From Raillietiella orientalis (Eukaryota): a stretch of DNA of 64,000 bases. Position 1 is the first letter of the stretch. Each line of letters opens with the position of its first letter. Below are positions 534-35,495 of the stretch, in pieces. Under the pieces are notes generated by a model that saw only the letters and a program-made list of their open reading frames with translations, was not told the DNA's origin and did not search any database. Location of the stretch: the NCBI GenBank assembly GCA_036172245.1, contig JAYWIR010000017.1, positions 1 through 64,000 on the forward strand, written 5' to 3'. The translations under genes and the position numbers were made by a program.

Positions 534-1971
534 TCCAACTGGCCGCGGAGGGGGCTGGCTTCAACGATGCAGCCAGCTCCTCCGTCGCACGCTCGAAGGC
601 GGCGTCGTCGATCACGGTCTCGATGACGGACGCTTCCGCCGGTTCGCTCCCCACGCTGTTGACATTTTCAACAGTGGGTTGCTCGTCGGTAGCAGCGATT
701 TCTACCCTGCAGCGTTCGGCGGGGACGCGTTCCACGACGACGCTGCATTCTTTTAAATTCTCGCTAACCTGCTGTTTTTTATTTTGGTAGGCGAGCTTTT
801 TTTCGATTCGTCGTTCTTTCTTCGACTTTTTTTTCTTTTTCGCTGTGACTTCTTGCCATTCCAACACCTGACCGCTTTTGTCAATCTTTTCGGCATTCGT
901 TGCCGGGGTGTCGGCTGAGGCCTGGACCACGGGAGTGGGTGGCACAGCTTGAGCGGCAGCCTTCGCCGCCAGTTTTTTCTGTAGCAGCCGCGCGCGTTTT
1001 TTTAGGTTCCTCGCGGAAACCACGCGCACAGAGGATTGTGGACACACTTCCTTCGTTTGGCCCATTGTCCCGCATACCAGGCACTGTACGTTGGGGCACC
1101 TTCTTTTGAGGTGTCCCGACGTGTTGCAGAAGCCACAGTATTTGGGCTTCCCCACGTACCAGAGGTCGACGCTTTCTCCTCCGACCACCAGTTTGTGGGG
1201 AAGGGTAGAGCCCTCCCGAACGGTTACACGGGCAGCCGTGAGGCCGCACTGAACTGTGGTATAGTCCTCGAAAGGACTAGGCTTGGTCCATACTGCATGG
1301 ACCGTGCCTTCTTTTCCCAACGCGGCGCGTAACTGTTCTTTCCGCATCCGCGCGGTAACTCCTAAAAGGTGGACCAACATCCTGTGGTCCGCCGTAACGG
1401 GAAGGAACCTGCGTGTCCCCATTACCACGGGGGTTTTAAGCAGACGGTGGGCCAGATCTGCATGTTTGCAGATCACCTCTACGTACTGTTCCCCGCTACG
1501 AATGGTCATAGCGCAGAGCTCCTCTTCTTTAACTTCGAGAGCGCGCATCCCCTTCGAAAAGGCGCGCGCACTCTCAGCAGAATACAAATTTCCTACCTTG
1601 TAGAATAGTAATGGGTTATACCCCTCTTCCACATAGGCAGATAATTCCGCCGCGGCTGCAGGCGATGGCGCCGACACGACGGCGCTCCACGCCCGCGCTG
1701 CAGCGGGGACCGGTTTTGTGCGGGCGGACGCCCCCACCTCCTTCGCCACTGAAGGCGACGTTGCCGCCGCCCCCTGGCACTCCACCTTCTCTAGAGGCGA
1801 CGTTGCCGCCGCCACCTGGCACTCCATTTCTTCAGGAGGCGACGTTGCCACCGCCCCCTGACACGTACTGGTGGTCGCGTCAGGCATTGCTGCCTGATCG
1901 ACTACCACCACACACGAAGCCTACACCTAGGGACGGTTCCCGGCACGAGGAGCACCGAGGAAACACGTCCG
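534..1971 (-). mobile_element. L1/Tx1-like LINE ORF1 (gag-like, CCHC zinc knuckles), degraded, with 5' UTR
   Basis: Minus strand VDLWYVGKPKYCGFCNTSGHLKRRCPNVQCLVCGTMGQTKEVC (~1170-1040), followed by a Lys-rich region. The 5' motif CGGACGTGTTTCC is at 1971-1959. Confidence 0.85.
1753..1864. repeat. Tandem repeat, ~2.7 copies of a 42-bp unit within ORF1 N-terminal region
   Basis: AGGCGACGTTGCCRCCGCCMCCTGRCAC.. starts at 1753, 1795 and 1837. Confidence 0.9.
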
Positions 1972-1999
1972 CTCTAGACGACGTAAAGCTTTCGACTGC
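1959..1999 (-). promoter_or_regulatory. Putative Inr plus DPE internal promoter, second copy
   Basis: GCA(+1)GTC with A at 1997 and GGACGTG starting at +28 (1970). Overlaps RT-coding sequence on the opposite strand. Confidence 0.4.
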
Positions 2000-4135
2000 G
2001 TCGACCAGGAACTCCTTCTGGAGCTTCTGGAGCGCTTGGAATTTCCGGCCGTCTTCCTGGCCTACCTGCGCTCCTGCTGGCGCTTCGCGTTCATTAATAT
2101 TAATTTCAGCGGCCGGTACGTGTTCGGCGTGCCGGTTCGTCGTGGCATCCGGCAGGGTAACAGCCTCAGCCCCCTGCTCTTCAGCATCTACTTTGAGTTG
2201 GTGCTGAGAGCATACAGGGAGACTTTGGCAACCCTGCCGAGCTCGTGTCCCGGCACGCCTGCCGTGTCGGCCTATGCCGACGATCTTCTGCTCCTGCTTC
2301 CCGGGTCCACCCCGGCATCGGCGCTCGAGGATTTCTTCGAGTTGCTATACCGTGGGACAGGCCTCCAGGTGAACAGGACGAAGTCGTCGTTGCTTTTCAC
2401 CGACTCGACGAGGGCCGGACGGTCGGACTGGATCCGCTTGGGGATCCCCACGGGCAGGTACATCAAGTACCTTGGCGTTCCGTTGGGGGACTTCTGCTCT
2501 GCAGAAGCCTGGTCCGACCGTCTACAAAAGGTGGAGCTGGCGATCGGCCCGTTCCGGGACGGCAAGTTTCACTTGCAGGAACGGGCCACGGTATGGAACG
2601 CTTTCGCGGCCCCCCTCCTTCGCCCCCTACTTTTTGTGTGCCCTACCCCGTATCAAATCAGGACACGGTCTAGGGGCCTTATACGGAAAGCCCTCTGGGG
2701 CAACCGGAGGCCTCGCGTCCGGCTCAAAGACTTGTGCGCTCCACGCAGGGACGGTGGACTTGGTCTCCTGACGTTGGAGCGCATGGAGCGACAGCTCCAA
2801 TTCAGAAAACTTGCCCTTGTGGCAAAGTTTTGGACAGCACCCTGGTGTGCACCAGCAAGACTCCTTGCTCACAGGGCAACCGGCTGCTTCGGATTGACTT
2901 CAATCCTGGTAGCCAACGAACGCAGCCTGAACCATTGTGGTTATCAGCTGCGGGATTTGGTTGCTCTGATGAGAGACAACCCTTGGATCTCCTGCATCCC
3001 AGCGGACTGGACTACCTGGCTTCAGGAATCCGTATCCGCATGGGCGAAGATCAATGGCACCAGCGATGAGGACTTCTCCTGCCTCCGCAGAGGAAGGCAC
3101 GCTGGTCAGCCACTCCAGGAGATCGTTTCCAACCCACGGAAACTTCTGTGGGCTTCCTTCACCCCCCTTGCCCCAGTGCTGCCCTTCCTCAGGGAAGTTC
3201 GGGACAGCAACCAACAGGCATCGTGGGAAGTGTCCTGCCTCATCGGAGGCAGGAAGAAATCACTGAAGGCGTGGACGCCGAGGGAACTAGCGGACGCTAG
3301 TACCCCGAGTGTCCCGCCGAACGGACTTTTACGCTGGGGCGAGCTGCTCGGTATACCTCCGGAGGAGGTGAAGTGGCCCCCAGCGTCATGGGACAACGGC
3401 ACCCTTCCCCTGCAGTGGCAGGAGACGGCGTTGCTTCTGCTCCACTGGGGACTTTTAAGCAGAGCACGCCTGTCTCGCTGGACATCGGGGAATGTGGATG
3501 CTAGTTGTGCAGAGTGCGGGGAAAGGGAGACCTTCCCCCACTTGATTCTGGAGTGTTTTGCCCTCCACGAAATGTGGGACAGACTCTCGTCGATCCTCAA
3601 CATTCCGGAGGGTCACCCGAAAAATCTATTCAGACGCCTTCTGACGCGAGACGGCTTGCCAGCCTCCGGGAGCGTAGCAGTGCTCTGCTGCATACGCGGT
3701 ATCCTGGAGAAGTAGACCGCGTCTAGGAGAGGAAGGGCCAGCCGGAATGCCATCCACTGGGCAGCGATCTCCTTGGAGAAAGCGTGCCGTTGGCGCCGAC
3801 TTCAAAAACATTTGCCAGCACTTGTTCGCATCCGAAACCGGATGCAAAGGCCTGCTCACGGCGCACCGTGATCCCCTCCCTCCCTCCCCCTCCCCAGAAA
3901 ACTTTGCCCTCCAGACGTTTTTCTTTTTTGGTTTTTGTTTTGTTTTATTTTTCCCGTCCCGGCGCCAGTGAAGGACCTTATCGACCTCCGGGTCGGTAAG
4001 GACAAGTGCTACTGAACTTCTGAACTGAACTTCTGACGTCGTAAAAAGAAAAATTTTAACAACATAGACTTTGTTACAAAATTTTGTAATTTCAAAATTT
4101 TAGTAATAAGAGCCCCGGCTTACCCGGGTGAAAAA
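1971..4135 (+). mobile_element. L1/Tx1-like LINE ORF2 3' half (RT motifs to C-terminal CCHC) plus 3' UTR and short A tail
   Basis: Open frame 1985-3715 with KAFDCVDQ, GIRQGNSLSPLLF, AYADD, IKYLGV, GGLGL and CAECGERETFPHLILEC. A pyrimidine-rich UTR and terminal hairpin plus AAAAA follow at 4105-4135. Confidence 0.93.
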
Positions 4136-6051
4136 CCTGCGACGGGAGACGTGAGGCCCACGTCTCCCCAACCTATGGAGGTGGGGTCATGCCCCACCAG
4201 AAAATCAGCCCCCGCCACCCCGGCGAGGGCGTGGAACAAGGTGGCCGCGGCGGCTCCGCCGGACGTGGCCGCCGAAGTGCAGGCCTACATAAAGGAGGGC
4301 TACAACCCAGCCCTCCTTTAGAAGGTAGGAAATCTTTATTCACCGCTTACAACGCGGAAATTTGGAAACGCCATCCGTAGGATGGGAATCTCTGACAAGG
4401 AGATTCTTTGCTTCTCGATTCGGAGCGGCGGGCAGTTCGCGGAGCTGATCTGCAAAGATGCAGCGCTCACACACAAACTGCTCTGCACGCCCGTTCCGTT
4501 CGAAGGGCGGAATCTCCTCCCACACACGGTGGATCACTCTATGGTGATCCACCTCACGGGTACAACGGTGCGGATGACCGATGAAGCCATCCGCACTGAA
4601 ATCAACAAATTCGCGGAGATATACGCGATGTGGTCAAAGCCCAACGCCCCTACTTATCGAGGCGCATTCAGTAGGCGAGTGGCCGCACGCGTAACTCTCC
4701 GCGAAAACAAAGAACTTCCCCACAAGCTTGAAGTCAACGACGAGCTCGTCGACCTCTGGTACGTGGGGAAGGAAAAATACTGTGGGCTGTGCAACACATT
4801 CGGGCATCTTAAAAAGAGATGCCCGGATGCCACATGCCCAATTTGAGGCGCGAAGGGCCACACTAGTGCTGTGTGCCCGAAAAACGCCGCGACAACGCCT
4901 TCAGCCCCTTCGACAAACGAGGGGAAGAAGGCAGAATTTAAAGCAAAGAGCGATGGAAAGCCGACTTCAGAAGAAGTCGTGCACAAGGAGCAGGAGCCTC
5001 AAAAGGAGACTTCTGATCCAAATGCCGACGAGGAAGGCTGGAAAATCGTCTCCGGCAAAAAACCCAAACAAATTGAAAACAAAACAAAAAAAATCCCCAC
5101 AAAAAACTCAAAAAATCAGAATGCGAGCGTTCCGAAAAAACCCGCGGTCGGCAAACCAAAAATTCCGCCGCGCGAGTACATAAAGGAATGCCGCGTTACA
5201 ATCGAGCTGCGTTCCGTCGATAGAGCGTCGATCGGCGAACGCGACTCCCGCAACCGTCGCGAACGCCGCGGAACCGCCGCAGGAATCCTGCGACAAACAC
5301 GCGAGCAGCAGCGACGAGAAAAACTTCGCGAAGGCGGCGGAGGAACTCGCGGCCACCTTAATGCAGACGCCAAAGGCTGCAAAGAAGGCCGTCAGACGTC
5401 CGGCGGAAGTTAAGGGCCCGGAAACTTCCGGGTCCGAGGCGGAAGCCGGAAACCCTCCCACCGTCGCCCTTCCGAAGAGGAAGGCGGGCCGGAAGTCGCG
5501 CAACCCTATGCGCGCCGCTCCCCCTCAGGCTGAGGAGGAGGAGATGCGCTCGGATAGCGAGGAGGCGATGTCCGCGAGGTCGCGGGATCCCTCCATCGAC
5601 AGCATCCGGTTGGTCCTTCCTATCGACCTCAGTCCGGCTGCAGACGTTCCGGTCGTTGCCGGAACGCCACCAGCGCAGATGGACAACGACCAGCCGCCTC
5701 CCGAACAGGAGGCGGCAATACACACGCCACCACCATCATTAGTATGATGCGTGGAATCGCCTCTTGCCGGCAGCTGCGTATAGCCTGTTGGAATGTCAAC
5801 GGGCTGCGTAGCGAAAGCAAGAGGCGTAGCGTGGCCGACACCCTGCGATCTTTCGACCTGGCACTTCTCCAAGAGGTGCATGCCCTCAGAGCAGAGGACG
5901 TCCAGGAAATCGAGAGGCTCACAGGGGGGAGGCTACTTTGGGGTGGTGGAGGAGACCACTCCCGCGGAGTGGCCTTCCTGCTGAAGCCGGCCGTCGCCAA
6001 TGCGGTGCGCAGTGCACAGTTCGACGAGGAAGGTCGAGTCGGACAACTTGT
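4136..6051 (+). mobile_element. L1/Tx1-like LINE ORF1 (degraded) and start of ORF2 APE endonuclease
   Basis: CGLCNTFGHLKKRC knuckle at ~4780-4820. ORF2 from ATG 5744 reads IACWNVNGL...LALLQEVH...SRGVAFLL...DEEGR, then is truncated at ~6051. Confidence 0.9.
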
Positions 6052-6826
6052 CCACTTGAGGACAACCTTGAAGGGTTAGGTGTTGGCTCTAGGCATTATG
6101 CAAATTGGTATAGCCCTCCTTAATGGGCAATGTCTAGTTTACTAATTGTAGCTTGCAATTGTGTTGTTGGGTAATCTGGAAATAGTGTCGCATACTTGTC
6201 GTAATCATTTCTTTCCAACCAGGTCATTAATTGACAATATGGCTGCAGCTGCTGCAACAGAAGAGCTTATAGCAGCATTTGAAGAGTATAGTGAAGGTCT
6301 TCCAGATTTGGACGGCGATATAGAGATTGGCCTTGCTACCGTAACAGACATATCTTTACCTGAAGATAGGAGATTACCAATTTATCAACCCACCGATGGT
6401 CGCGTTACCAATAAAAACTTAGCGGCAGAAGCAAACGGCTGGATACTCTAGCAAATTGTATAAGGATAACCAGATCCTGCTCATGGTGAATGGGATCTAT
6501 GCTTTCCTGACATACGATATGATCCGGTAAAGGCGAGTCAATGGAGAGTTAATACCAGACGGAGATTGCAGACCCACTTCACAAAGATATGATCTCACAC
6601 CAGCACAGCGCACCTCGAGTCAGGCATTGCTTTCCAAGCAGCTGGCAGTTAACTGCATGGTACTGATCATTGCAACCAAAGTAACATGTTGGTTAACAAA
6701 TCATCATACTGGAGTGAGAAAAGACAACCTTAAAGGGGCTGGTTTTCCTCTTAAAGTATGGCGGTCTTTGTTTGCGAAAGTCACTATATCTGTGGAGAAA
6801 GGGATGGATATGCTGCAAGATCCTGG
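6052..6826 (+). pseudogene. Probable endogenous viral element: RNA-virus nucleoprotein-like fragment (tentatively Qinviridae-like)
   Basis: Abrupt drop in GC. Intronless frame from ATG 6239 (MAAAAATEELIAAF...) is broken by stops and a frameshift, then continues to VLIIATKVTCWLTNHHTG. This resembles the K-x-x-W-x-x-NHH-x-G motif I recall from qinvirus-like nucleoproteins (recall only, unverified). Confidence 0.5.
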
Positions 6827-8305
6827 GTAAGATTGAAAGACTTCGTGGTGCCGTGTCAGGATGCAGGCTTGGGCATCCTCGACATAAACAGCATCGAGCC
6901 GCAGGTGCAGTTTCCTATGCTGCGGCTCTGTGCCAAGCTGTGGTGTACGCCGTGGTGCTTACACGCACGTCTTGTACTAAGGCGCTGCACGGGTAGCCAT
7001 GGAGTGCTTTCGTTGCCGCCCCACTTTCGGCACCCCAGAAATAGGTTTGGCTTCCCGCTGAGGCAGCTGTCCCCGCTGCTGCAAGCCCAAAGTTGGATTT
7101 CCTGCCGCCCCATGAACATAAGTGCATGGTGACAGGAATCCTTTGCATCGTGGGCCGCTTCCGAAGGAACGCGCCCGGAAGATCTTCGACGCCTGTGACT
7201 TCTCTTCAGTCATCCAATGGAGGAAGTCATACAGGACAAGAAGTCGGATCGTCTGGCCACCACACCACTCGCCGCAGCCCTGTCTAAACTCAGGGCAAGC
7301 AACGACAGTTGCCTACCGGCGGAATGGGAGTTCTCTTGCACAATAGCAGGTCTAAGCTCCTGGGCGGTTGGACGACAAAGGAGCTGGTGGAAGCCACCAC
7401 TCCTTGGAATCAGGCGAAGGGCCTGCTTCGGTGGAGTGAGCATTTAAGTGTAACCCCGAAGAGATAGTGGTTCCCCCGTTTGTTTGGACAGCTCCGTGTT
7501 CCCCTTAAAATGGAAACAAGATGTGCTGCTCTTTTTACACTGGGGATTCCACTGTAATTGGCAGCGAAGCACCATTTCCGGGGGAGCTGCTTCGCCAAAC
7601 TGTTTGAGGTGCGGAGATATCGAGTCTTTTCCGCACCTCTTTCTGCACTGCGGTGACTTTTGTGAACTGTGGCGAAGGCTGATTTCAGCCATCATGCCGC
7701 AGGGAGGCACTGCCATTGATGTGCTGCGGCGCTTCTTCAGCAGAAATGGACTTTCGGTAGGCGTGATTGTCGCAACCATGTGTTGCATTCGTGCCATCGT
7801 GAAGGCCCGCTACGCCTTGGAGTTGTCAGCGCAGCGAAGGAAGGCTCACCTGCTTGCAGCTGAATCCATGGAGAAGGCTGCAAGTTGGTCTCATCTTCGT
7901 GACGAGGTGAAAGAGGACATCGCCGGCATGCATCGCCGGTTTACAGACTTTTGAGAACGGCGTAATCCGGTGACCCCTGCGACCTGTATCCCACCCATAC
8001 TCCATCCCCGTTCGCTCTGCTGAATTCTCGGTGCCATTACTTATATCCCGGTGCCTACCAGAGCTATTTCAAAGACCCTTGTCCCGGAGTCCAATATTCA
8101 TTGTTTTTCTTTTGTTTTTGTTTGTTTGTGTTCCCCGTCTCCACACACCGTTCCCAAGAATGTTATTCTGTCCTGCGTGCCAGCAATATTCTCTTGATCC
8201 TTGTCCAGTCGACGGTTGGGAGCCTCCTTCCCAACTGGTTTATGTTATATAATTTTCACTGCATGATTATATGGAATAAACGCCCCGGCATGACCGGGTG
8301 AGAAA
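6826..8305 (+). mobile_element. 5'-truncated L1/Tx1-like LINE: post-RT ORF2, CCHC finger, 3' UTR
   Basis: VRLKDFVVPCQDAGLGIL aligns to VRLKDLCAPRRDGGLGLL of 2036-3715. Also CLRCGDIESFPHLFLHC, and an AATAAA-hairpin-AGAAA terminus at 8275-8305. Confidence 0.9.
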
Positions 8306-8430
8306 TCTCCCAGGCTTGATCTGCGGAGATCACATGGACCTCCTGCAGCAGCACTAGGTGCGAAGGATGCCAGGATGCCCTGTCACTTCTCTTGCCGTCA
8401 TCGCTAAGCCCGGCGACGTTCCAACAGTCC
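8306..8430 (-). mobile_element. Fragment of LINE APE endonuclease N-terminus
   Basis: Minus strand CWNVAGLSDDGKR...HLVLLQEVHVISADQAWE, homologous to 5786-5910 and 32766-32890. Confidence 0.8.
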
Positions 8431-8449
8431 TACTATTCCAGAATGCCAA

Positions 8450-11650: not shown

Positions 11651-11999
11651 CATTGAACAGCAGATCAGGCAGCTGTGTTGTTGTTCACGCAAAATCTGAT
11701 TGCAAAGTACACGGTTGCGAACCGAACTTCGTCGAACAATAGAACCTCAAAGTCCAGGTACGACCATCATGCTTATACCTCCTTTTTTTCCGACTGTGCA
11801 GCACCGTAGTTGAAACAAGTTTAAAGAAGACAGCTCGTGCTACCGCGGAGAAACGCAAATTCTTCATGTAACACTGGATTCGAGCAAATGATAAGGCTGG
11901 GATTTCGAACGACAACCGAAGCGTTGACGTTTTTTTTGCAAAAGCGTAGGCCCTTGTGTACGTCCATTGAAACAAGCGACTAGTCTTCTAGTGGAGAGT

Positions 12000-12900
12000 C
12001 AAGTTGCTGCGACGGCCTGAGGAGCATTCTTTGGAAACGCACCACGGCGGGTGACCTCCATTCAGCAGCGTCGCTGAGGAGCATCGCGTGGCTGGAATGG
12101 CGCTATGACCGATACCTTGTTTTCTCCCCTTTGCAGAGGTAGGAACGACAGGAATTGTCCTCGGACGTTCCAGGAAAGGACGTCACTCCGGTGGCGCCTC
12201 CAGCAATCCCAATGATGTGAACGGTCGTTTAGGAGATCCCCTTCTGGAAGCCTCGAAGGAAGAACGGTGTATCTTCTGAAACCTGCTGCTCCATACACCT
12301 TTCTTCTCCAGCGGCGAAAACCTCGAAAGAAACTTCGTGGATGTCTTTAGCAAACATTGGGCATCCGGAAGTCGTTGTAGCACGCAGGATAAAGTCCCCC
12401 CGACGTAGCGAAGTATCTCGGTCGGCTGTATTCCTTTGAATCGCGGTGGACACATTGGCCACTCAGTGAAGACTACCAATCAGCTGTCGAGCTGGACGGA
12501 AGCTGCTGCCAGTCCGCAAGGAGAGAGCCGCAGGACGGTAGGCCAGCTGACAGCCCTTGGCTCCGTTAATCGTTGTGCGCGCCGCTCGGAATCCAGCGAA
12601 CCAGCGGGTTGCACCTCCCGGGGGACACCTTCAACCATACATCGCGTGGACAGGAAGTTTCCAAGATACGTGGTCCTACCGGATCGTAGGACGACAAGCA
12701 GGAGCGATGGTGGACCAAGAATTGCATCCAAGGAAAATGCGGGAACGCGCGGGCAAAACCTCGCGCCCACGAGGGAAAATTAAAGAGGCGAGCGACCTGG
12801 AGCGAGCCACACAAAGGCTGCGGAAACCGAATGGCAGCCGTTCACGGCCATACCACTCTAAATGCGGCCCCTCGTCCGATCGACGAACTTAAGCAGAGTT
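12000..12900 (-). mobile_element. Highly degraded LINE ORF1 copy
   Basis: GC-rich. QVARLFNFPSWARGFARAF resembles QVGNLFDGRTARAFSKAL, and LRYVGG..C....PNVC resembles LWYVGK..C...CPNVQC. Confidence 0.5.
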
Positions 12901-13451
12901 AAGCCCGGTCATTACTAGGATGGGTCACCGCTTGGAAGCTCCGGGATTTCCGTGAGTCACTTCTATTCTGCCTTTTTGCAGCCACGCGCGCCTCCCAAGC
13001 AAGGTGAGTCGTAGATGAAAGTCGAAGAACATAAATTTCGTTCCAGCTTGCATCAGCAACCCCTCCGCTGTTTGTTTTCCCTTTTACCAATTATTTCTTA
13101 GTTGCCAACTGACAGATGAGGACGCCTGCGCCACTGCTGTGACGATGAGACTGGTTGTCGCGGAGGTGCCAGGCGAAAAACCACCTTACCAGCCGGCACT
13201 TTCCTGCGGCGACTGCTGAACGGAGGCGTGCGGACGTGATGTGGTTTCGCAATTGCTCTATGGACAGTCGTGGCTTAGTCTACTCGTCATAAAAAGAGAC
13301 TCCGCTTATTCGAAAGAAGATCCTCGAGGTCTTACTCCTTTCCAGAAGATCTCTTCGTAGTTGACTCCATATCCCGAAAAATACCAAAAATTAAGACTTA
13401 TGTGCATTGCATGTGTTAACTCGTACGCCGATGTAAAAGTTCACAAGATGA

Positions 13452-20489: not shown

Positions 20490-20838
20490 CCGTTCCTCTG
20501 TCGAATTCGTCTTTTCCAACTGCAACCTGGCAGCAGCGCCGCTTCGTCTTCGCTACGACGGGCGGCTGTGACGTCATAGTTTGACGTCACTTACGCCCGT
20601 CATAGTTTGAGTCGTTCATCGCGGCGACGAGGACTCCACATGCAGTCGGTGGCCAACTTACTCTCTTCCACGCCAGAGCTATTTTTCGGTTGCCAACTGT
20701 AGCTATTGCGTGTCCAGCTGTGGCAGTTTACTCTGTTGCTCGTTTACATCTTAAGATGAACATTAATGAGGAAAGGTTGCTGCGTGCAGAAACCCATCAA
20801 TCATCCCGAAGAGCTGCTTGAGGCTCAACAGTTTGTTT
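20490..20838 (+). repeat. ~310-350 bp repeat, copy 1 (inverted partner of 28814-29122)
   Basis: Aligns along its length to the reverse complement of 28814-29122 apart from two short insertions. Contains TGACGTCA at 20569 and 20582 and a short ORF start MQSVANLLS. Confidence 0.92.
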
Positions 20839-24207: not shown

Positions 24208-24879
24208 ATCTAGTGAAGATGATTTCGCAATCACTGTTTCATTCACAATGATTGTCAATCTGCAAAACTATAAAGGTATTGAGGTTAAAATCAAACTTAT
24301 CTGGCAGGGAAGTTTCGGGGATGGTGGAGAGCGTATTTTTCACAGTTGTTTCCCCAACCAATCCTCATGGAGAAAATGACCTTTTCATTACAGAGTTTCG
24401 ATTCTTTGGTGCATGCGTGCCTAATTCCCCTCTGCAGTATCGCAAAATAGAAAGTGATTTCAGTTATCCCATTAGATCCTTAGTTAGATTTTGGATTTTC
24501 TGTTTCTGTAATTGCAGCTGCATGCTAGTAAATAGTGTTGGGATTGAAACTCCCTTTTGTGTTTACTTGGTGAGTTCATTCATGGATTCTGTCGGTCTTC
24601 TAGAATAAAAGGATCATGGAAACTCATGATACTTCTGTTCCGCCTAATTGCTATTTGTTGAGAGCTGTTATGAATGGGAAAATGATTCTTCAAGATATCA
24701 AATATACTTTGGAAGGTGTTGGAATACAGGAAAATGAATGGTTATGTAGAGAAGTAGAATATGCGGCAACATTTCTGTAAAAGATGGGGAATTGTGAGTT
24801 GGCATTTCACATAGTTTCATTTCTCATAAGTTGGTTAATTTGCTATTGACTGGAACTTTTGGATACATGCAGAAACAGT

Positions 24880-26200
24880 TTATTGCACTGTGTGAAATTT
24901 TGCAATTATTGATTCAGTGCAAGATGAAGCAAAAAAAGTTTTCCCATTGCGGAGTGCTATCAATTGATGCAACCTACGATGGATTGAGAAACAAAAATCG
25001 GTGAAGAAAGTAAACGCATATCTTGAGAAAAGGCAGTTCCGAACATGTATTCCACTGTGATCTTCATATTCCCATTCATATCTTGAAGCTGTTTGGTAAC
25101 TGAGGGCAATGTTGAAAATAAGGCTGCAAAATGGTTCTTCTTTGTGGTTGTTTCTGTACTTATTTCCTCTGATCGTTTTTCTCATTCGCCTGTTATAGAG
25201 TTGCATTTTATGAGAAATTGCAAGTCCCCACCATCCTTTTCGCAAACTTAGAAAACGGTTAGGTATTTGTAAACCATCAAATCCAGCAAACGATGAGCAG
25301 GCGAATCTTTCTTCTAGAGTGATGCCATTGCAGATTGCTAAAGACACGTTACAACAGTTCACCCGACCTACCAGAGGAGTTTCCAAATTTCTTAGTAACA
25401 AACCCGTTGGTCTATGATAAGTGCCCATACAAAGGAGAAGAAAGGTGCAGATGCTGCGATATAATCCTCTGGTGTGCACCATCTTGCGGAAAACACAATT
25501 CATGACTCCTATGGGAACCTTTCACCACAGTACTTTGCATGCAGCCATTTTGCAGCCGTTTTGCCGAAAATTTTCCAAAAATTTGGCATTTTCAGTTCCC
25601 CCAACATTTTTCCAATAGTCCTGGATGGAGTCCCAAATGCGGACCCCTGAATGCAAAATTTGAGATTGTTCACCCTGCATTCTGTCTGTTGCCATGCACA
25701 TGAACTCTCCGAGGAAAAGCAGGATGCTCTTATCCATTCATTTCATGTTTCCATCAGTGGTAGCTGAAATGAATGAGTACTCTTTTATTTTCTCCCATCG
25801 TATAGTGCAAGTAGGTGTTTCGCTATGCAGGCGTTTCTGGTAAAGTTTCACATGCTCGAATGAAAAGTCACCTTGCTCAGCAAATTTTGCTATCAATTTA
25901 AATCCATTGCAACTCATGAGAGGATTTATTAAGTTGATCCGTTGGTTTTCGCTGTGTTACGAATTCGACTTTTCAGAAAAGAGTCCTCGTGCAGAGAAAA
26001 GGGTGCATATGCCAATTGAATGGGTTCGTATTGAAAAATTTCAGAATATCGCATAAACGCATACACGCAAGTTTGCTCTACGTAAAACTCATATTTTCCA
26101 CGCAGAGTTTGTTCCTTTCATCACGAGTGGACAAGTCGCTGTAGTCGCGACCTGCACACATGCATTGAAAGAAGCTTACAAAGATACATTCATGTCACAC
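24880..26200 (-). pseudogene. Long intronless decayed coding sequence, paralogue of 8450-11650
   Basis: The 207-aa ORF 24880-25503 is extended upstream by 25522-25737 and by RINLINPLMSCNGFKL...LHSETPTC. Blocks LIFNIALSYQTAS, SRYAF and LLFLGEFMC are shared with the 8.5-9.7 kb region. Confidence 0.55.
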
Positions 26201-28813
26201 AACAGATTTGAAAGCCCTGAGCAAACAGAGAGGTTGGAAGTATGCAATTTCATTGCAATTTTCTGAACATTGCAGAATCCGTACCATCTTCTGGACACCA
26301 CTTTTTTTTTCATACGTTCTCGCACTTGTTTGTCCATCATGAGTCGCTTGACCATCATGAGTTCCCGTGTGCCTATCCCCTACTTCCTGTTGAGCATAAT
26401 GTTTCCTCTGATCTTTGTTCATTGGTTCATAAATCCCTTCTCACCTTGCAGAAGTTTCTGAATCGCGCAACCTATCAAGTTATGGATTGCATGCATTCAA
26501 CATTGCTCCAGAAAACAAAATATTTGCCCTTATAGGCACTCTCGCTTGCTCTCATCTGTGTCCGTTGTGAGCATTTCGGTAATGGTTGACGAGTCTGACG
26601 TGCATCGAATTTTCGTTCTGAAAGCATTGACATGATATCGGGAGAAGAAAACCCAGAGACTGGTGGCCCACATAAAAAACCCATAAAGGAGAAACAGTTT
26701 GAAATTTTTCGAGCAGAGCGTCGGTAAAGTTCGAACCAACTCTTATAGAAGAGCTCCAAGCTTTAGGTTGAAGCGCAAGATAAGCGCACCGTTCAATGGT
26801 CGTCGGTGATGCAACAAAATGCTTCAATTCTGTGGTTTCCGCTCTGCACACCCAACCATCATTCAGTCTCGGATGATAAACACGAGAACTTTTTAGTCCT
26901 CATATGGATGTCGTGCAAATCAGAATGCAATTCCTTGACGCGAAATCCTCCTGGCATCCTGCACCGTGATCTTTACCGAGATATTCAATCTCGATCTATG
27001 GATGCTCTTCACTATCATTTGAGAGTGCAAAAGCTGCCCACACAAAAAGGGGAGGGAAACAGAAAGATTCCCAAAAAATCATCTAGTCGCCGTAGAGCCA
27101 CTCGCCTGCAGTAAAGTCGACAAATGCCCTAGTGAGATCTGCGAGATTGCGAGCCGCATCTCCTTCTCTCACTGCGTCCTCATCCTCAGTGTAAGCGTAA
27201 GTTCAAGCCAGCTTTGGAACCTCAAAGCGGTGCTTAAGGGAACTCATACTGCATGTGAAAAACGAATCACAGTAATGTAGGATTGCCGATGCGTGCGAGA
27301 GTGCATTTGTTTTCACAAGATCCGCTAAGACGAGAGAACTTCTCATGTACTCATGAGCAAAGAGCACTCGTGTGTTCAATAGCAGGCAGCTTGCATGAGT
27401 TTGTTCAACTATGGAGCTTCTTATCCCAAACGCTCACGCTGTACACGCACCTCGCTGCAGGGTAGCGATTTCGTCTTTGAAATGTAACAGTGCAACGCGG
27501 CGAGTGCTGGACCTGCTCACTCAAGAGTGCGTTTCAAACCAATTCTGTTGCCCCATAGGAGCAGCCACATTAATGCTCTTAGTGGTGACAAGCGAAACCC
27601 TTGGGCTGAACGAGATACCAGCATGGGTGTTTCTCGAGATTTAGAAACGGAGGAAGCAAGAGAATAATCACCTGCGTGTCAATTGCGTCGAATGTTTGTA
27701 CAGACACGGCTACTCTTGCTGGATGCAAAAAAGCACGGTGGTTGGCGGATTATTTGCAAGACCCTGGCTTCAATTCGTAGTTGAAGGAATGTTGATTCTG
27801 TCATTGATGGAATGTGGCATGTTATCGCACCCTTTTTTCCCCGAAAATGGGAAGCCATTGGTTGAAGCCTTCTGAGAACGGCATTTCTTAAACAAGTATC
27901 AGCGCATAATCTTTCCGTACTATTTTGTAGCCATTCACTATGTATCGACTAGCGTGGTAACGAGGCCAGGGAGTGAGCCTGGGAACGATACCCATTGCAC
28001 TCACGCTCCTGTGTGCATCCGATGTCATGAAACGTGCATTCGCGTCAAGAGTCAATAGATCAACGAGCGTTTAAATGCTCACATGGAACTGAAACATGAC
28101 ATCACAAAATATCTCTCGTATTTGTTGTAGAAAAATGCAGACACCTCGCGATCTCTCGGAATTAAGTGCCGTTGATCCTTCTCCACCCCGGGGACACGAG
28201 GCATTCTACCGACAGTGCTGCCAAGAGCAAGACGCAGCTGCAAGGAAAGCTCAGTAACATTTGACTTCGTTGCTACACTTATGATGCAATTCAAATTTCC
28301 TGAAGACTGATAAGAAGGGTTTCTGAGAAAAAAACAAGGCGTCTTTGGAATAAATTCCAAGGAAACACTAGAAGATCCAAAATGTATCCTTGAGCACGTT
28401 GGAGGGTGCAACATCGACCTTTTGTGAGCATCCTGCTGACATGAATCCTGCATTGCAAGTTGCGTTTGTCCCGTGTATCACGACATTCCTAATCAACTTG
28501 GAACACCGTGCTTCCGGCAGCCTCTTCAAGCATTCACGATGCCCAGCTATGAAAACGAAGCTTTGTATTCAAACAAGAGCACGATAGAAGCGACTTGACA
28601 TTGGTAGTTTAGGGAGTCCATTCTTCACACTCGCAACTTTTGCTTTATTACTCAACTCTTGAAGTGCACAAGCGGAATTTTCACTCACTTCACCGCGCCA
28701 CACAAGTATCGCTCCATTGGTCTACGCTCGTGTAAATGCAGTCCTGTCTTCTGTGCTGCATTGCGGACTTCTAAAACCCATTTCCTCTTTCCAAGCTCAT
28801 TCAGCACTGTCGT

Positions 28814-29122
28814 AAACAAACTGTGGAGCCTCAAGCAGCTCTTAGAGATGATTGATGGGTTACTCCACGCAACAACCTTTCCTCATTAATGTTCATCTTG
28901 AGATGTAAACGAGCAACGGAGTAAACTGCCACAGCTAGACACGCTATTGCTGCAGTTGGCAACCGAAAAATAGAGAGTAAGTTGGCCACCGACTGCATGT
29001 GGAGTCCTGGTTGCCGCGATGAACGACTCAAACTATGACGTCACAACCGCCCGTCGTAGCGAAGACGAAGCGGGGCTGCTGCCAGGTTGCAGTTGGAAAA
29101 GACGAATTCGACAGAGGAATGG
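28814..29122 (-). repeat. ~310 bp repeat, copy 2 (inverted)
   Basis: Reverse complement matches 20490-20838. TGACGTCA at 29036. Short ORF MQSVANLLSIFRLPTAAIACLAVAVYSVARLHLKMNINEERLLR. Confidence 0.92.
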
Positions 29123-32100
29123 ATTGAACAAAGCAAAAGTGACCTCTTCATCAGGAGGAATGCAAAGCTGCAAATATTTTCGAGCAGGACAACGCGACTT
29201 CCTGGGCGACTCAGACGAAGTAACTCTTTACGTCAATGAAAGGAGATAAGAAGCCACGGCAATGGGGCATCTGCGCAAAGGACAGATGAAAAATTTAGGA
29301 ATCTCACAGGAAGGACGGGAAAAAAAAACGCTGCAATAGAGAAGGATACAGTAAATTGTTAAAGCTTCCTCCATGCATGGCTGCTAGCAAGGAAAATTTT
29401 AGTTGAACCATTCATTAAAAAAAAGCAGGAGTCTCAGTGTTGAGCAGCTTTTGCTCTCCAGATGTCAGCATGCTTCCATTCAACTTGGTTCTAACCTGAG
29501 CAGGGTGGTCAACCGCCTGCTTTCGTAGACGCGCTACGGTCAGAAGTGAGACAGGCGGCCATAAGAGCTGGAATGCAAGTGGTCTGATGCATTATCTACT
29601 GCTGCGGTTATTGGATTCCAATTCTGATCTCTTGACGTCTTGGAAGAATATTTGCGAAATGATACGAAGAAGAGGAAACATTACTTCCGCTTCTCGAAAT
29701 CCTATCCGTGAAATCTGGTCTTTTTATTTTGCTTCAAATTTTCCTTGAAGCTTGCCAACATATCGTACACATCAAGAATGTGAAACACACTTTTGTGACT
29801 TCACAAACAAATTTCTGAGCTCAAATGTCATGAAGTAAATTCCAAACGGAAAAACACTCTCATCAACGCAAAAAGATCGTTCGCAGATTACATTCCGCGT
29901 TTCTATAGCGCTGTATTCCGAATTTAAAAAAAGGACATTTTCAGCGTGCACAGTGGAAACTCCATTAAAAAGATTGCTTATTGTTTGGAAGATGAGGAAA
30001 CAGACATACACGCTTCAAAAATTCTTCTCGTCTGCCTCATTGGAACACTGTGAAACACTTCCTTCTTTGAACATCTACAGGAATTTCACAATGACCCTTC
30101 CTGCTTCTCTTTATCGAATGGCTGCTCCGCGATGGCAATTAGGATTCAGTCCGTGTCGGATCATGTATTTCCTTGGTTTGACGGAAGCTGTCAATCATGT
30201 TCCAAGGAGTGGCTTCGACTTCCATAACCTCAGTTTTCAAAACGTTTCCAGATCCATCTGTTGACAATACATCGTGAGGAAGAAGTCTGGCTGCTTTTAA
30301 TAGCAGATCCCACCGGAGAGCATGAAGATACTTTTTCATAAGGTCGTGCTTGTTCCAAGCCTCCGTTGAAATCAGCAGCGAAAACTGATCGGAAAATACA
30401 AGAGGGATGCACTTGGGCAAGTACGGCTTCAGCCCACGTCGTGTGTTCTGTACTGTAGGACGATCTCATCCATTGGCCACTCCCCCTCAAGATAAGTATC
30501 TTGTGCAACATGCAGTTGGCGAGAGAAGATGCATTCGGACCACGTGTCAAGATTCCAAAAGACAGGTGTTCCAAGCATTCGTTCCGTGTTTGCACTATAA
30601 AAAACTACTTTCAATTGAAGAATCGTACTCTTCAGAGAAATCTCTCTCAGCATCCTCAGCAGCATGCTTGCCGTGATCTCTGTTTTGCTCGCCCTTGCAG
30701 GGTAAGTCTTTGAAGTGATTGTGTCAACAGACTCTTTACTGTAATACTTGAGAGAGCATGTTGTTTCCTCAGGATCGCTCACAGCAGAGCAGAAGCCCCT
30801 GTTCATACAGTCTTCTTTGGATACAACCCGAATTTGGTAAAAACTGCACCACTCTACTGCGAGATGACGAATCCTTAATTTTTAGCGTCAGCTGTACACC
30901 ACTGTGAAAGTCGGCTCACCGCGGCAGGCATTCAAGCTTAACCCAGACAGCACGTTTGGAAGCACTTGGCTTCCCGATATCGAGTGCGAAACGAAGTGGT
31001 GCAGTGAGTGGTCCACCAAGAAAACCGCCAATGTGTCCTTAACATGATTCTTTTAGAGTGGCATCATCGATTCGACCCTAAAAAATCCAGCACCTGGAAG
31101 GATAAGAAAAAAAGCGTCAAGAGACGGTTTTGGGGATTGACAACGACAGCCAGAAAAGGTTCAGACATCGTAGAGGTAACTCTGCAGTCAAAGGCTTGAG
31201 AGCTGCTAATTGAGATTTATCCAGGTTCTAAATGTCGACAACTCCTCGTCGTTTGTAAAGAAGGATGTCACTCTGGATCTGTTCAGTTTGGACACAAACC
31301 CTACGTATCTGCATAATTTTATGGTCGGAGACGGACTTTTGGGAGTGGACCTAAAGGGTTTGCAAGAGTTCGTTTCTAGGCCAAAGGTCTACGGATTATC
31401 TCTTGGAGAGTAAGAAAAGGAGTGAAGAAAACGTAAATCTGAAATTTGCTTTTTGATAGTGCGTTCGGAACAAAAATAACTTTTGGAGGAGTGGACTCTA
31501 AAGATTGGATAAAAGCAAATAATACAGTCACAAAATCTCTCTTAAGAACCGTAGGAAAGTTCAAAGACGTGCCTACGTTCATATTTAATGAGTGAGCAAG
31601 CATTTTTTAGGTCATGGTAGACATTCAGGTGATTTTGCAGTATTGACAAGATTAGCTTTCGAGTAGTTTGTTTAAAATGAGTAAGGCTGAATCTTGCAAT
31701 ATCGCGAAAAGGTGTTGGTTTTGCATTTGAAAATAGACTCATAATGTGATTTGTCCATCTCTATTTTCGATTCATAGAATTTCGTATGGCACCCAAAAGT
31801 TTGATTTTGGCGATACCAGCGACATGGCGCTGGACAGTGGCAGCCCTTTTTTAGAAGTACCCCAAACATTTTTGGACTCGATAGTGAAGTCACTTTCTGC
31901 AAAGCCTCACCCACCTCATAATCGTCTTTACACGGTGAGCGCTCAAAATTGACGACGTTGTGTTTGCTCACAATGAATAGATGCCCTGCGACGTTCGGGA
32001 TCCTCAAAAACACAAGGATGTGACGTATTCATTGGGTGGAGGCGTCGATGTTCGTCTTGATGTCTTCGAATACACAATCCGGGTAATGGAGAAGTTAGAT

Positions 32101-32724
32101 TACTCAGAGTGACATTTTCTTGCTTCGCTTTCTGTATTTCTTCCGGAAATCTTGATGCTTGGTTCTTCGGAGATTTTTACAACTCGTCTGGTTGTGCGTG
32201 CTTGTCGTCCGCATTCCGTATCTCAGAACTGTTGCATGAGGACAAAATTACATATTTGTTGTTTCGACAGGAATATCCGCCAACAAACCTCTGTTTCCTG
32301 ATTTTTAACAGAGGATTACGACAGGAGCTGGGGAGAAGCTGGACCTTCGGAGTAACACTTTTGCAGAAAGTTTTAGTGAAGTTGTCTCTCTCTGATAACA
32401 GTCAAGGGACAATAACTTTTGCCAACTAGTATTTTGTATCTTTGATTTTTCAGCAATATATTCCTAATTTTCCTTATGTAGTTTTTATTTGCGTGACTGC
32501 TCCCTGCCAGAAAACAATCCTGGAACTTCACGAAGCGATTCTGAGTTGCCAAAGTTCATTGGTACATATCCGCATTCGGATACTCAATTGGTGAACTTGA
32601 GTGTTCCACGAATACTTGATGATTGATTGCATGGAAACTGTTTATTTCCTGCTAGTCCTTCTTTAGATCTCTTCGTTAGGCTACTGAGGAGAATGTCTCT
32701 TTCCGTCACGAGGAAGGCGGAACT

Positions 32725-34442
32725 AAAACGAAGGAAGTCGCCTCTTTTCGTCGATTCAGCGTAGCCTGTTGGAACGTCAATGGGCTGCGCAGGGACGGAA
32801 AGAGGCGCGACGTGTCAGACACCCTGCGACATTTCGATTTGGCGATCCTTCAGGAGATGCATTACATCTCCGATGCGGAGGTTGCCGAAATCGAACAGCG
32901 CGCGGGTGGCACCCTGTACTGGCGAGAAGGTTCTGCACAATCGTGCGGAGTCGGTTTTCTCGTACATAGTAGGATGGCGGGAGCGGTGCGCAGCGTTCGA
33001 TTCGACCAGGAAGGGCGAATGGGCCAACTTGTACTCAAGTGGTCAGATTCAATCGACCTCGTCGTAACGAACGTCTACGCGCCGAGCGGCTTTCATCGGC
33101 GTGTCGAAAGAGTCGAGTTCTTCGGCATGTTGGAAAGCCGATGGTTCAGGAACTCCGGAGCCAGAGTGGCCCATCTCGTCGCAGGGGACTTCAATGTCCA
33201 CCTGCTTTCCAACGAGACGAGGTCCCTGGCGGAACGGTCGCGTGTGGAAGAGGCATGCGCGTCGGTGCACGCGCGTAACTTGAAAGCCGGCGATCCTGGA
33301 CTAGAAACGTGCGTGGTTCATATCTACCTAGATGAACACCTACTCTCACAAGTGGGAAGGAGAGGCAGGGTGCCGTCCACGTTATCGGACCATGATAGGC
33401 TTGAGTTCGAGCTTCTCCCGCCAGGCAAGGGAGCTCTGAACAATGTTTGGCGGATGCCGGCGGATTGGCTCAGTCATCCGGAGGCGGCGGAGCATCTTCG
33501 CCAGTTTCTCCGCGGCTTTGCCATCCGGCAACTCGCAGACTGGGACCATCTTAAAAGATCGGTTTGAGAGTTTTGCGACCGGTTCCCCCTGCACCTGCTA
33601 CCGCGCGGCTTCGGGGAAGGCGTGGCCAATAGCAGAGAATTTCTGCAGGCTCGCACCTTCTCTAGACGTGCGGAAGTCCGGCAACTAGCAGAGTACAAGG
33701 CGAGGGCCGAGCGCCAGGTCTGGAAGTCTGGGGCGGCTATTCTGCTCGACGACCAAGGCCGGGAATGCACGGCTCCTGCCGACGTACAGCGAGCACAAAG
33801 GCGTCACTTCTCCTTGCTCTACGCCAAATCCCCGACGGAGAGAATCCTCTCGGAACTACTTCTGCCGCGGGGTGCACACGGCAACGGCGAGGAGGAACGC
33901 GCTCGTCTCGACGAGCCCTTCACGTTGGAGGAAGTTTCTTCCGCCATCGCAGGACTCAAGAGACGGAAGACGCCAGGTGAGGACGGGCTGCCTGCGGGGT
34001 TCTATCAGAGCTTCGCGGCGGAACTCGTCCCCCTGGTGCTCAGACTCTCGACGCTGATGAGGGTGACGGGCGATGTCCCTTCTTCCTTCCGCTCAGCGAG
34101 GGTGCGTCTCCTTCCGAAAGGAGGAGATCTGCGCCAACTCAACAACTGGCGTCCGATCACGTTAGTGAATACGGACATCAAGTTGTTTTCGAAGCTGTGG
34201 GTCACGCGCCTAGGAAAGGTCGCGGAGTCCGTGGTAAGCCCGGAGCAGTCTTACGCTGTGCCGGGTAGGTCCATGGATGCGAACCTCCTTTTCGCGAGCA
34301 CCGGGTGGCAGCTTCAAGAGCGCGTTGCGGCGGACAGCCGAACAGCGGCTAGACCTTCTGCCGACTGCGAGCGCCAGTGCGGACCGACGGGAGAAAGGCC
34401 GAGAGCCTTGGCAGTCGCATTAGATTTGCATAAAGCATTCGA
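32725..34442 (+). mobile_element. L1/Tx1-like LINE ORF2 5' half (APE endonuclease and RT up to motif A), frameshifted
   Basis: VACWNVN, LQEMH, NVYAP, VAGDFN, LSDH, KTPGEDGLP, NWRPITLVNTDIKLFSK, then ALDLHKAFD, where it is cut. Confidence 0.93.
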
Positions 34443-35495
34443 TTTTTACCCGTATTTCTCCGGGTCGTTTATTTAAAAATAAACTGTACAAAAAGATGTC
34501 AGCCATGCTCCAGCCACGCACCAAGAAACAGAGCCTGCCGGGTCACCGGCTCGCAGACCGGTACGGTCCACCAAGGCAGCAGGGGGAAGGGGGAGAAATA
34601 AAAAATAAGCAAAAAAGAAAGGAAAAGTTGGGAGGGTACGGGAAGGGATCACTGTTGCTGCTGGAGCCGTTCCATCCGTCGCAGGATGCCGGCAAGCTCT
34701 TTCGGTATGGTTGGATCCAGGTGGGGCCATCTCGACGCTCTCCTCAAAAATTGGGAGGCTGGCTGGATGGCACCCTGGTCGCGTTGTCCTCCCGTAGCCT
34801 TGCTCCAGGCGTGGGACGATCCCGCGAAGGCAGCACAGGGCTGCTAACGGGGCCGCTAGCCGAAGGGCGTCGGCAACGTAGAGGACTTTTAAGGCGTCCC
34901 TGGGGTTGCCGCAGGGGATTCCGATGGCCGGGGCAAAGTGGAACCAAAGGGGCCGAAGGGCAACACAATCCACAAGTAGGTGGGGCAGGACTCCCGTTCC
35001 CCACACCTAACACCATTGGGGTTCCCCGCTCCCCAGGTCTAGTGGTGTCGACGGACGCTGCAGGGGAGTCTTCAGTGCTGCAACAGTAGAGCCGACTCCT
35101 GCCATTTAAAGGGAAGGGAGGAGGTGTTCATGAGCACCATTTAAAGGGAAGGGAGGAGGTGTTCATGAGCACCAGGGGCCACTTCAGATGTTCAATGGGA
35201 ACATCGAGCAGCGCGCCTCAGCTCAGAAGTCCATGGTGAGGCGTACTCAGGATCGCAGCGTCTGTTAGCTGTCCCATCTTCCACTCTCCTATTTTCTTCT
35301 TCCTTCCGTAGATTTCGACTATAACCTCCCACTTCGCCGCAACGTCGCTGTCCACATCTTTCAATAGGGAGGCCAGAGCAGCAGCGAAAGGATCTTTCTG
35401 ACCATGCTCTTTTCTTCGGATCCTCAAGGATCTCTCGGGAAGTGAAACTTCTGTAGCTCCCGAACAGGAAGCGTCGTTCCTGTACGGCGCGTTGC
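34443..35495 (-). mobile_element. 5'-truncated LINE 3' end (C-terminal ORF2 and 3' UTR), antisense to host element
   Basis: Minus strand FTSREILEDPKKRAW and LPHLLVDCVALRPLW...LCCLRGIV match the C-terminus of 2036-3715. Terminus AATAAACGACCCGGAGAAATACGGGTAAAAA at 34473-34443. Confidence 0.88.
35102..35174. repeat. Exact 35-bp tandem duplication
   Basis: ccatttaaagggaagggaggaggtgttcatgagca x2. Confidence 0.95.

Follow-up and report, generated by a model that had tools for sequence, protein, structure and literature searches.

The two junctions at which a plus-strand reverse transcriptase (RT) breaks at the codons for the motif-A residues KAFD are best explained as part of a self-nesting cluster of LINEs, with the shared break at motif A being coincidental and the endonuclease not being motif-specific; we assign this reading a probability of roughly 0.55. 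In the stretch of 64,000 nucleotides analysed here (the window), six of the seven canonical termini of the family adjoin family DNA, which accounts for about 19% of this one window, and the copies, which come from a diverse L1/Tx1-like family, therefore form a self-nesting cluster. Because the remaining five copy ends are at other sites in the window, the targeting of motif A is unproven.

The LINE family and its copies in the window

The copies are united by common termini, namely the 5' word GGACGTGTTT and a 3' end with AATAAA, a 5-bp hairpin and a tail of 3–5 A. These termini, already named in the original prediction, are real: all three exact occurrences of GGACGTGTTT are on the minus strand and at copy starts, and the hairpin pattern has five matches against 0.03 expected. 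Profile searches returned four 3' ends and three 5' ends in the window, the profiles having been trained on those same ends, and none of the five pairs of the 3' hairpin exhibits a compensatory change. The conservation of the termini persists despite a protein identity of 35–56% between copies (38–51% for the ORF1s and 35–41% for the C-terminal part of the RT, or RT-C); at the DNA level, the ORF1s of the copies denoted X and V are 67% alike.

The EN domain (PF03372) scores 44.2 bits in copy T and 29.5 bits in copy W2 (cut-off 24.5), and the RT domain (PF00078) scores 49.5 bits in copy W1 (cut-off 29.6), with the RT half of T alone remaining under the cut-off at 23.5 bits. The zf-RVT domain (PF13966) is likewise under its cut-off of 27.5 in both W1 (23.1 bits) and W2 (18.4 bits). 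The ORF1 of X matches no Pfam family at E ≤ 0.01, and a CX2CX4HX4C knuckle was recognised in its translation by eye. The family RT is matched by 6106 library proteins at E ≤ 1e-3. The nearest proteins with a name, from plants, fishes, ticks and a frog, are annotated as "uncharacterized" and have 23–34% identity. Judged from the sequence, the family is probably a diverse, recently active L1/Tx1-like LINE with an APE endonuclease, an RT, a zinc-binding tail and a zinc-knuckle ORF1, an assignment that we make jointly with the self-nesting interpretation and with the same slightly better than even confidence.

The left group of copies starts with Y (1–533, minus strand), which has a complete 5' end (GGACGTGTTT at 524–533; 5' profile match at 533–496, E 1.5e-6) and an ORF1 start, and leaves the window at its left edge. 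X (534–1970, minus strand) comprises a complete 5' end (1961–1970), the 5' UTR and ORF1, after which it ends at the head of Y, lying in the same orientation; an open frame of 640 codons runs through both copies, and the ORF1 N-terminus occurs again in the translation of this frame, at the ORF1 start of Y. The 5'-truncated W1 (1971–4135, plus strand) carries RT motif A, zf-RVT, a stop at 3713–3715, the 3' UTR, the hairpin and a tail ending in ...CCCGGCTTACCCGGGTGAAAAA, its open frame having 594 codons. It is followed by W2 (4136–8305, plus strand), which is without about the first 130 nt, has its tail end at 8305, and retains ORF1 (4106–5203 by tblastn), the start of EN (5756–6052) and RT-C (6764–7804). 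An internal loss of about 2 kb takes out motif A of W2, which also carries a foreign insert of 647 bp (6076–6722) with a 15-bp TSD. Adjoining the W2 tail in the opposite orientation is S (8306–8437, minus strand), a 130-nt piece of the EN N-terminus (about residues 28–73; tblastn E 1e-6).

The right group is bordered on the left (32680 and below) by AT-rich non-LINE DNA. T (32680–34442, plus strand) begins shortly before ORF2, contains EN (Exo_endo_phos) and the first half of the RT with a single in-frame stop (33565–33567), and ends at KAFD. Z (34443–35395, minus strand; 3' profile match E 9.8e-7) is 5'-truncated and consists of the C-terminal part of the RT (from about residue 412 onward in the W1 frame), the 3' UTR, the hairpin and the tail. 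U (35530–35705, plus strand; 3' profile E 6.5e-10) is a 3' UTR fragment with the hairpin CCCGGCGCGACCGGG and a tail ...GTAACAAA extending to 35705; its left border lies somewhere in 35400–35530, and it possibly represents the 3' end of the element to which T belongs. V (35706–36843, minus strand) has a complete 5' end (36834–36843), the 5' UTR and ORF1 (36778–35806), and is cut after ORF1 at the U tail. The 5' flank of V (36844 onward) gave no family protein match, and when it was considered as a small-RNA gene, Rfam returned only a distant 5S gene and no tRNAs were found. By eye, this flank agrees with the first bases of W1 at 6/8 positions, with the KAFD word absent after them, and the agreement was taken as chance.

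Two junctions at RT motif A

At junction A (1961–1995), the minus-strand head of X meets the plus-strand W1 at its truncated 5' end, in a head-to-head arrangement and without filler. The exact 5' word of the minus-strand copy X (GGACGTGTTT at 1961–1970) represents a complete 5' end directly beside W1, in which the KAFD word AAAGCTTTCGA is found at 1985–1995 (plus strand). The preceding bases 1971–1984 (GCT CTA GAC.GA CGT) translate as A-L-D-(one base lost)-R, and because they match the ...AVDLRKAFD of the relatives P0023 and P0024, the start of W1 is most likely at 1971. At junction B (34417–34447), the final 26 nt of the T RT (A L D L H K A F D) meet the minus-strand AAAAA tail of Z: the word AAAGCATTCGA at 34432–34442 is the end of the plus-strand fragment T, and directly adjoining it is TTTTT (34443–34447), corresponding to the 5-A tail of Z (3' end AATAAACGACCCGGAGAAATACGGGTAAAAA, minus strand). 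The plus-strand frame 33568–34476 reads ...ALAVALDLHKAFD. The claim that both junctions fall on the same KAFD codons is thus confirmed, with coordinates slightly corrected.

When placed on outside RTs, the end of T and the start of W1 map to positions 605/601 of P0007, 582/578 of P0019 and 1026/1023 of P0012. T and W1 represent one P0023-like sub-lineage (59% and 64% identical to P0023, respectively) and overlap by 25–26 nt at motif A, and the polarity of the junctions is complementary, the upstream half bearing a tail and the downstream half a head. Both motif-A-bearing fragments in the window (2/2) are broken at motif A, and both are of this sub-lineage. The 25-nt copies in T and W1 differ at 8 of 25 aligned bases and by one indel, being about two-thirds alike. 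The overlap and the polarity of the two junctions would fit one staggered cut. The duplicated site of 11 bp, or up to 25 bp, that was initially envisaged is not accompanied by a TSD pair, and the only clean TSD nearby is 15 bp long. We concur with the caveat made at the outset that no true TSD pair is present, the T and W1 copies coming from different elements. The flanks of the minus-strand block share no 8-mers (k=8) that could represent a TSD, and a search for the missing half of T (the RT continuation) beyond this block and the V head gave no match at E 0.1, the best one listed having E 0.27.

The KAFD 11-mer itself is not rare, with four matches against 1.33 expected and four being reached in 5 of 100 shuffles. 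The chance of a shared breakpoint was estimated by a simulation assuming uniform breakpoints in a 5750-nt element. The coincidence has P = 0.016 if only the antisense junctions are paired (three tail-type with one head-type), whereas pairing each of the 5 × 7 internal breakpoints gives P = 0.17 for a TSD-like coincidence; any two of 12 breakpoints come within 30 nt in 51% of the simulations. A third RT in the window (51383–51827), considered as an unoccupied target, belongs to another clade and is no empty target, since it reads ...LDITNAFG....

Taken family-wide, the specificity for KAFD-coding DNA that the original prediction put forward is not borne out in the window, where one of the four tails and one of the three heads lie at KAFD and the other flanks differ, in a sample of seven termini that is too small and mixes several sub-lineages. 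The flanks of the four tails begin CCTGCGAC, TCTCCCAG, CGACCACG and TCGAATGC; the five flanks beyond the two at KAFD are unlike the KAFD site and unlike one another, and the three head flanks differ, too. The other tails are located at about residue 73 of EN (S), behind ORF1 (V) and within a 5' UTR (W2). A preference restricted to one sub-lineage is still conceivable because both T and W1 are P0023-like. A recurring type of junction is one in which the sense strand of a copy facing the other way has primed a tail, and the far side of that copy is then missing.

The public run X1 (Logan contigs) contains 0.08 of the sampled words. On the region of junction B, 104 X1 contigs fit at 80% likeness, 78 of them being less than 90% alike, and the depth is 9.3 in the bin with the junction versus 52 and 44 in the bins alongside (6.5 at both 34418 and 34435). 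The boundary 34442/34443 is bridged by none of the 8 of 112 pieces and 6 of 100 loose ends listed, and the run neither confirms nor denies junction B.

Possible origins of the shared breakpoint

According to the interpretation that we prefer, new copies would start reverse transcription at nicks situated mostly within older family copies, and insertions would occur in either orientation and at many different positions, often bringing 5' truncation, an internal loss or a loss of the far side of the target. The anatomy of the junction shows that Z was primed at a nick in the sense strand of T, immediately behind ...TTCGA; the X head would have been joined to the truncated 5' end of W1 on integration of one of the two, in an order that we infer. 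With about a dozen internal breakpoints present, the occurrence of both breaks at motif A of one sub-lineage would then be coincidental. The junctions seem to have been made at integration rather than by decay, as the long open frames (640 codons in X-Y, 594 in W1, one stop in T) argue for young copies. It should be noted that the "many positions" come from few cases, i.e. seven termini in one window, and that the copies are of different sub-lineages, which could differ in target choice. On the side opposing coincidence stand the complementary polarity, the overlap of 25–26 nt, resembling one staggered cut, and the restricted-pair chance of 0.016.

The same three observations would be accounted for if one sub-lineage nicked the motif-A DNA (…LD..KAFD) of a P0023-like sister with a stagger of about 25 bp and its antisense insertion split the RT, which we regard as unlikely, albeit the least so of the alternatives. 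The coinciding break positions on outside RTs and the P0023-like nature of both T and W1 would fit as well, and so would the short defined tails and the conserved 3' hairpin, features usual in target-specific LINEs. However, only one of four tails and one of three heads are at the site although the termini are common to all copies, and the downstream half of T is absent past the block, so motif-A targeting needs an added deletion of 2 kb or more. In addition, there is no TSD pair, the 25-nt copies being from different elements and the only measured TSD being 15 bp long, and the inserting copies would themselves carry the same motif. Tx1 families aimed at DNA transposons and LTR elements are known (PMC4494074). 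The full version of the idea, with a sub-lineage endonuclease that would recognise the motif-A DNA of the sister, cut about 25 bp apart and insert antisense, systematically disabling the closest competitors, appears doubtful to us, as does, jointly with it, the corresponding view that the window junctions reflect two such events, one seen from its tail side and the other from its head side.

Alternatively, P0023-like reverse transcription might start or stop at motif A owing to a hot spot at the RNA level (internal priming, twin priming or template switching), a possibility that we consider improbable. The junction of X and W1 has exactly the head-to-head layout expected of a 5' inversion, in which X extends to the true 5' end of the RNA, and 5' inversions constitute 18–22% of human L1 insertions, often with overlapping cDNAs (PMC12016303). 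Twin priming, however, wants X to extend to the left across EN as far as motif A, and the head of Y interrupts it at 533, with the far side of X lying outside the window. Internal losses are frequent (W2; V-Z if one copy; joints in X1 contigs) and therefore favour frequent template switching, but a single-RNA origin of X and W1 cannot be shown because they have no overlapping part in common. Further difficulties are that T is without an inverted partner on its left, where AT-rich non-LINE DNA lies, and that no U-run to pair with an A tail follows KAFD, the sequence KAFDCVDQ being common to W1, P0023 and P0024. Applied to the T–Z junction, an RNA-level origin would mean internal priming of the T cDNA by the 3' end of the DNA located at the Z tail.

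Since the region is made of related repeats in both orientations, one or both junctions could be suspected to be assembly chimeras, but repeat misjoins link like with like in the same orientation, whereas here an internal RT site meets a precise terminus of the opposite strand without filler, and two other tails have the same kind of junction; we deem this highly improbable. Barely credible is the derivation of both junctions from one old insertion into one element that was duplicated later. It would agree with T and W1 being of the same sub-lineage, but their overlap is only about two-thirds alike, and neutral decay of such an extent would not have left the frames of W1 (594 codons) and T (a single stop) open. 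Moreover, the sequences flanking the two regions have no relationship to each other, and no RT follows the V head.

Known systems and database relatives

The preferred interpretation, i.e. self-nesting, invites comparison with Zepp, an L1-type LINE of green algae that "targets existing copies" and is frequently 5'-truncated (PMC8226300). The likeness, one of behaviour, lies in the pile-up by insertion into own copies, with 6/7 termini adjoining family DNA in our case. Zepp is described as forming tandem arrays mostly of 3' ends, whereas both orientations and three full 5' ends are found here. Another paper lists fixed-site APE-type LINEs, namely Tx1 in Tx1D, Tx1-Mar in Mariner-N4_AMi, and Tx1-8_Crp and Tx1-4_AMi in LTR elements; it also states that SINEU-3 shares the Tx1-Mar target and has the same flank in 90% of its copies, and it takes one kind of sequence in >20% of flanks as the criterion of a target-specific LINE (PMC4494074). 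These transposon-targeting Tx1 families are, like the family described here, APE-type LINEs, and their insertion at a fixed place in another mobile element is the model behind the original prediction. Those families carry one and the same flank in a substantial fraction of their copies, whereas here 2/7 termini share a flank, a number far too small for the comparison. In a study of L1 5' inversions, the overlap that the two cDNAs often have amounts to a median of 12 bp, similar to the TSD length (PMC12016303). Junction A resembles the twin priming described there in the inverted 5' piece placed head-to-head with a 5'-truncated, tail-bearing piece; the difference is that twin priming covers junction A alone and that the inverted piece is lost at Y and the window end.

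We found no LINE targeting the RT gene of another LINE in the open-access text. Motif-A targeting, if true, would mean a LINE with a safe-harbour target in the catalytic core of a competing LINE, i.e. a transposon conflict. As the evidence stands, the window documents a self-nesting family with strongly conserved termini, which is more ordinary but still useful.

The family is absent from the searched databases except for one protein, P0023, a 619-aa RT encoded on a JGI contig 2870 bases long; no other close relative was found, and P0023 shares the ...AVDLRKAFDCVDQELLLELLER... stretch. Comparison of W1 with longer database proteins yielded only relatives of 23–34% identity, the RT half of T had no match at E ≤ 1e-3 among 8000 candidates of near length scored, and P0023 retrieved, among near-length proteins, itself and then matches of 32% identity or less. 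Protein database searches revealed no predicted proteins reading through such junctions. Three DNA collections contained no close relatives, the matches being two loci in metagenome contigs (26–27% identity), one locus in genome contigs (26%) and none in viral contigs. Motif A is uninterrupted in both outside relatives, P0023 and P0024 (2/2), and P0023 differs from T and W1 precisely in that its RT continues through this motif.

A LINE family in two GC-rich blocks

Fragments of one LINE family make up two GC-rich blocks, 1-8437 and 32680-36843, with a G+C content of 57-59% compared with 43% for the whole window. Its parts include an endonuclease (EN) of the Exo_endo_phos type, recognized by Pfam, and a reverse transcriptase (RT), together with a weak zf-RVT match under the Pfam cut-off; Pfam gave no ORF1 family, and a CX2CX4HX4C knuckle was read in ORF1 by eye. 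The 5' word GGACGTGTTT has three exact occurrences (533, 1970 and 36843), each of them minus-strand and at a complete 5' end, or head. The 3' ends, or tails (n = 4; at 4135, 8305 and 35705 on the plus strand and 34443 on the minus strand), share AATAAA, then a 5-bp CCCGG/CCGGG hairpin and then GT-R-A-N-AAA, with the terminal hairpin kept across copies and no compensatory changes seen in it.

The leftmost piece, Y (minus), has its head at 533, comprises a 5' end with the start of ORF1 and continues past the window edge. Its head cuts X (534-1970, minus; head and ORF1) after ORF1. There follow W1 (1971-4135, plus), running in RT from motif A through to the tail, W2 (4136-8305, plus), lacking ~130 nt at its 5' end and with an internal loss from EN to mid-RT, and S (8306-8437, minus), 130 nt of EN. 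In the second block, T (32680-34442, plus) holds EN and the first RT half, Z (34443 to about 35395, minus) the RT C-terminal part and 3' UTR, U (up to 35705, plus) the end of a 3' UTR, and V (35706-36843, minus) a head and ORF1. Some 90 nt ahead of its terminal hairpin, U has another GC hairpin, CCCGGCCTGAGTGCCGGG (35594-35611), which aligns with like stretches in the 3' UTRs of W1, W2 and Z. W2 also holds a foreign AT-rich insert of 647 bp (6076-6722) within a 15-bp direct repeat (6061-6075 / 6723-6737, 14/15 alike). The insert lacks the 3' hairpin and does not match the family 3' profile; it terminates in GTGAGAAAA, close to the family's own tail (GGGTGAGAAA in W2), and may be a non-autonomous element mobilised by the same LINE family.

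Identity between copies is 38-51% for ORF1 and 35-41% for the RT C-terminal parts, and the ORF1 DNA of X and V is 67% identical. The frames are nonetheless mostly open (640 codons in X-Y, 594 in W1, T with one stop), so several old sub-lineages of the family were recently active, the junctions likely dating from integration itself. The 640-codon frame (1-1920, minus) joins the ORF1 of X, across the X/Y join at 533/534, to the 5' UTR and ORF1 start of Y. An exhaustive protein search yielded one close relative, P0023 (64% identity to W1, 59% to T), and a short second one, P0024, motif A being uninterrupted in both. T and W1, both close to P0023, thus belong to a single sub-lineage, separate from W2 and Z. 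The nearest named proteins, from plants, fishes, a frog and ticks, are 23-34% identical, and a scan of three DNA collections gave 26-27% at best. The one public read run was a weak source of this DNA; among the pieces listed (8/112), none bridged the junction between T and Z.

Two junctions at the KAFD word

The RTs of T and W1 are indeed broken at the same residues of motif A, the KAFD word, as the original prediction described. The frame of T terminates ...ALAVALDLHKAFD, and at junction B (34442/34443) AAAGCATTCGA (34432-34442) is directly followed by TTTTT, the tail of Z. The frame of W1 reads ...RKAFDCVDQELL from 1982, and the 14 bases ahead of its KAFD word give A-L-D, a codon short of one base, and R, in agreement with ...AVDLRKAFD of relatives; W1 thus most likely starts at 1971, flush against the head of X at 1970 (junction A). 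Aligned to distant RTs, the T end and W1 start fall at residues 605 and 601 of P0007, 582 and 578 of P0019, and 1026 and 1023 of P0012. The RT stretch common to both pieces is 25-26 nt long, with 8 of 25 aligned bases different and one indel, so T and W1 are not the two halves of a single element.

Self-nesting and its alternatives

We favour ordinary self-nesting with a coincident breakpoint as the explanation of these junctions, with a probability of about 0.55. Family DNA, which makes up ~19% of the window, adjoins six of the seven termini. Three of the four tails are joined to an opposite-facing family fragment that is truncated at its 3' end, each time on its sense strand: Z to T (break at the RT KAFD, 34442/34443), U to V (after ORF1, 35705/35706) and W2 to S (in EN at ~residue 73, 8306). 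The far side of each such fragment is missing or displaced. This join is a recurring junction type. Judging from this one window, self-nesting may reflect tethering to family chromatin or transcripts, the persistence of copies that landed in a safe region, or an endonuclease preference; on the last, G+C over 30 nt is 53-70% in three of the four tail flanks and all three head flanks, and 37% in the KAFD tail flank. Zepp is described as an element that 'targets existing copies' (PMC8226300), and the present family likewise nests within its own copies; unlike Zepp as characterized there, its copies occur in both orientations.

True targeting of motif A by family insertions, as originally proposed, seems unlikely, and we do not favour reading the junctions in this way. 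Both motif-A-bearing fragments of the window are broken at the motif (2/2), the polarity fits (the upstream RT half adjoins a tail, the downstream one a head, each antisense), and the overlap could reflect a 25-bp staggered cut. When only the three tail-type are paired with the one head-type antisense junctions, a uniform-breakpoint simulation gives P = 0.016. However, the hypothesis was derived from the same data, P becomes 0.17 when all 5 x 7 internal breakpoints are paired, and 51% of simulations put two of 12 breakpoints <30 nt apart; a second near-coincidence indeed exists, T and S both starting within ~30 nt of the ORF2 start. There is no agreement among the four tail flanks (beginning CCTGCGAC, TCTCCCAG, CGACCACG and TCGAATGC) or among the three head flanks, and the other tails sit within a 5' UTR, within EN or past ORF1. 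The lost half of T was not found past the head of V (no match at E 0.1, best listed E 0.27), so a nested insertion at T needs an extra deletion of ~2 kb, or else U represents the 3' end of T itself and the deletion falls between Z and U. No TSD pair corresponding to the suggested duplication of up to 25 bp is seen, and the cluster has a single clean TSD, the 15 bp at the W2 insert. Transposon-targeting families listed in PMC4494074 include Tx1 in Tx1D, Tx1-Mar in a Mariner and two in LTR elements, with >20% of flanks used there as the threshold for a target-specific call; we found no report in open-access full text of a LINE aimed at the RT of a relative.

An RNA-level hot spot at motif A, in which the DNA end at the tail of Z would have primed T RNA internally to form junction B, strikes us as rather improbable. 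Junction A has exactly the topology of a 5' inversion, an outcome reported for 18-22% of human L1 insertions, in which the paired cDNAs often share a stretch about as long as a TSD (PMC12016303), but X cannot be traced as far as this predicts, no inverted partner of T is present, and the T/W1 lineage has no U-run after KAFD. That misassembly made one or both junctions is very improbable, the joins being base-exact and at canonical termini, and a single ancestral event duplicated afterwards is still less likely when the common 25 nt are only two-thirds alike and the frames still open.

Other features of the window

A 5S ribosomal RNA gene at 12840-12958 (plus; Rfam RF00001, 44.8 bits, full model length) adjoins no LINE terminus. 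An inverted repeat pair unrelated to the family (20490-20838 / 28814-29122; ~349 bp, 84% alike) has its arms ~8 kb apart. Among other RT fragments, that at 49811-50035 (minus) weakly matches an RT C-terminal part, at 33% over 78 aa, and that at 51383-51827 (plus) reads ...LDITNAFG... at motif A and thus belongs to a different LINE clade.
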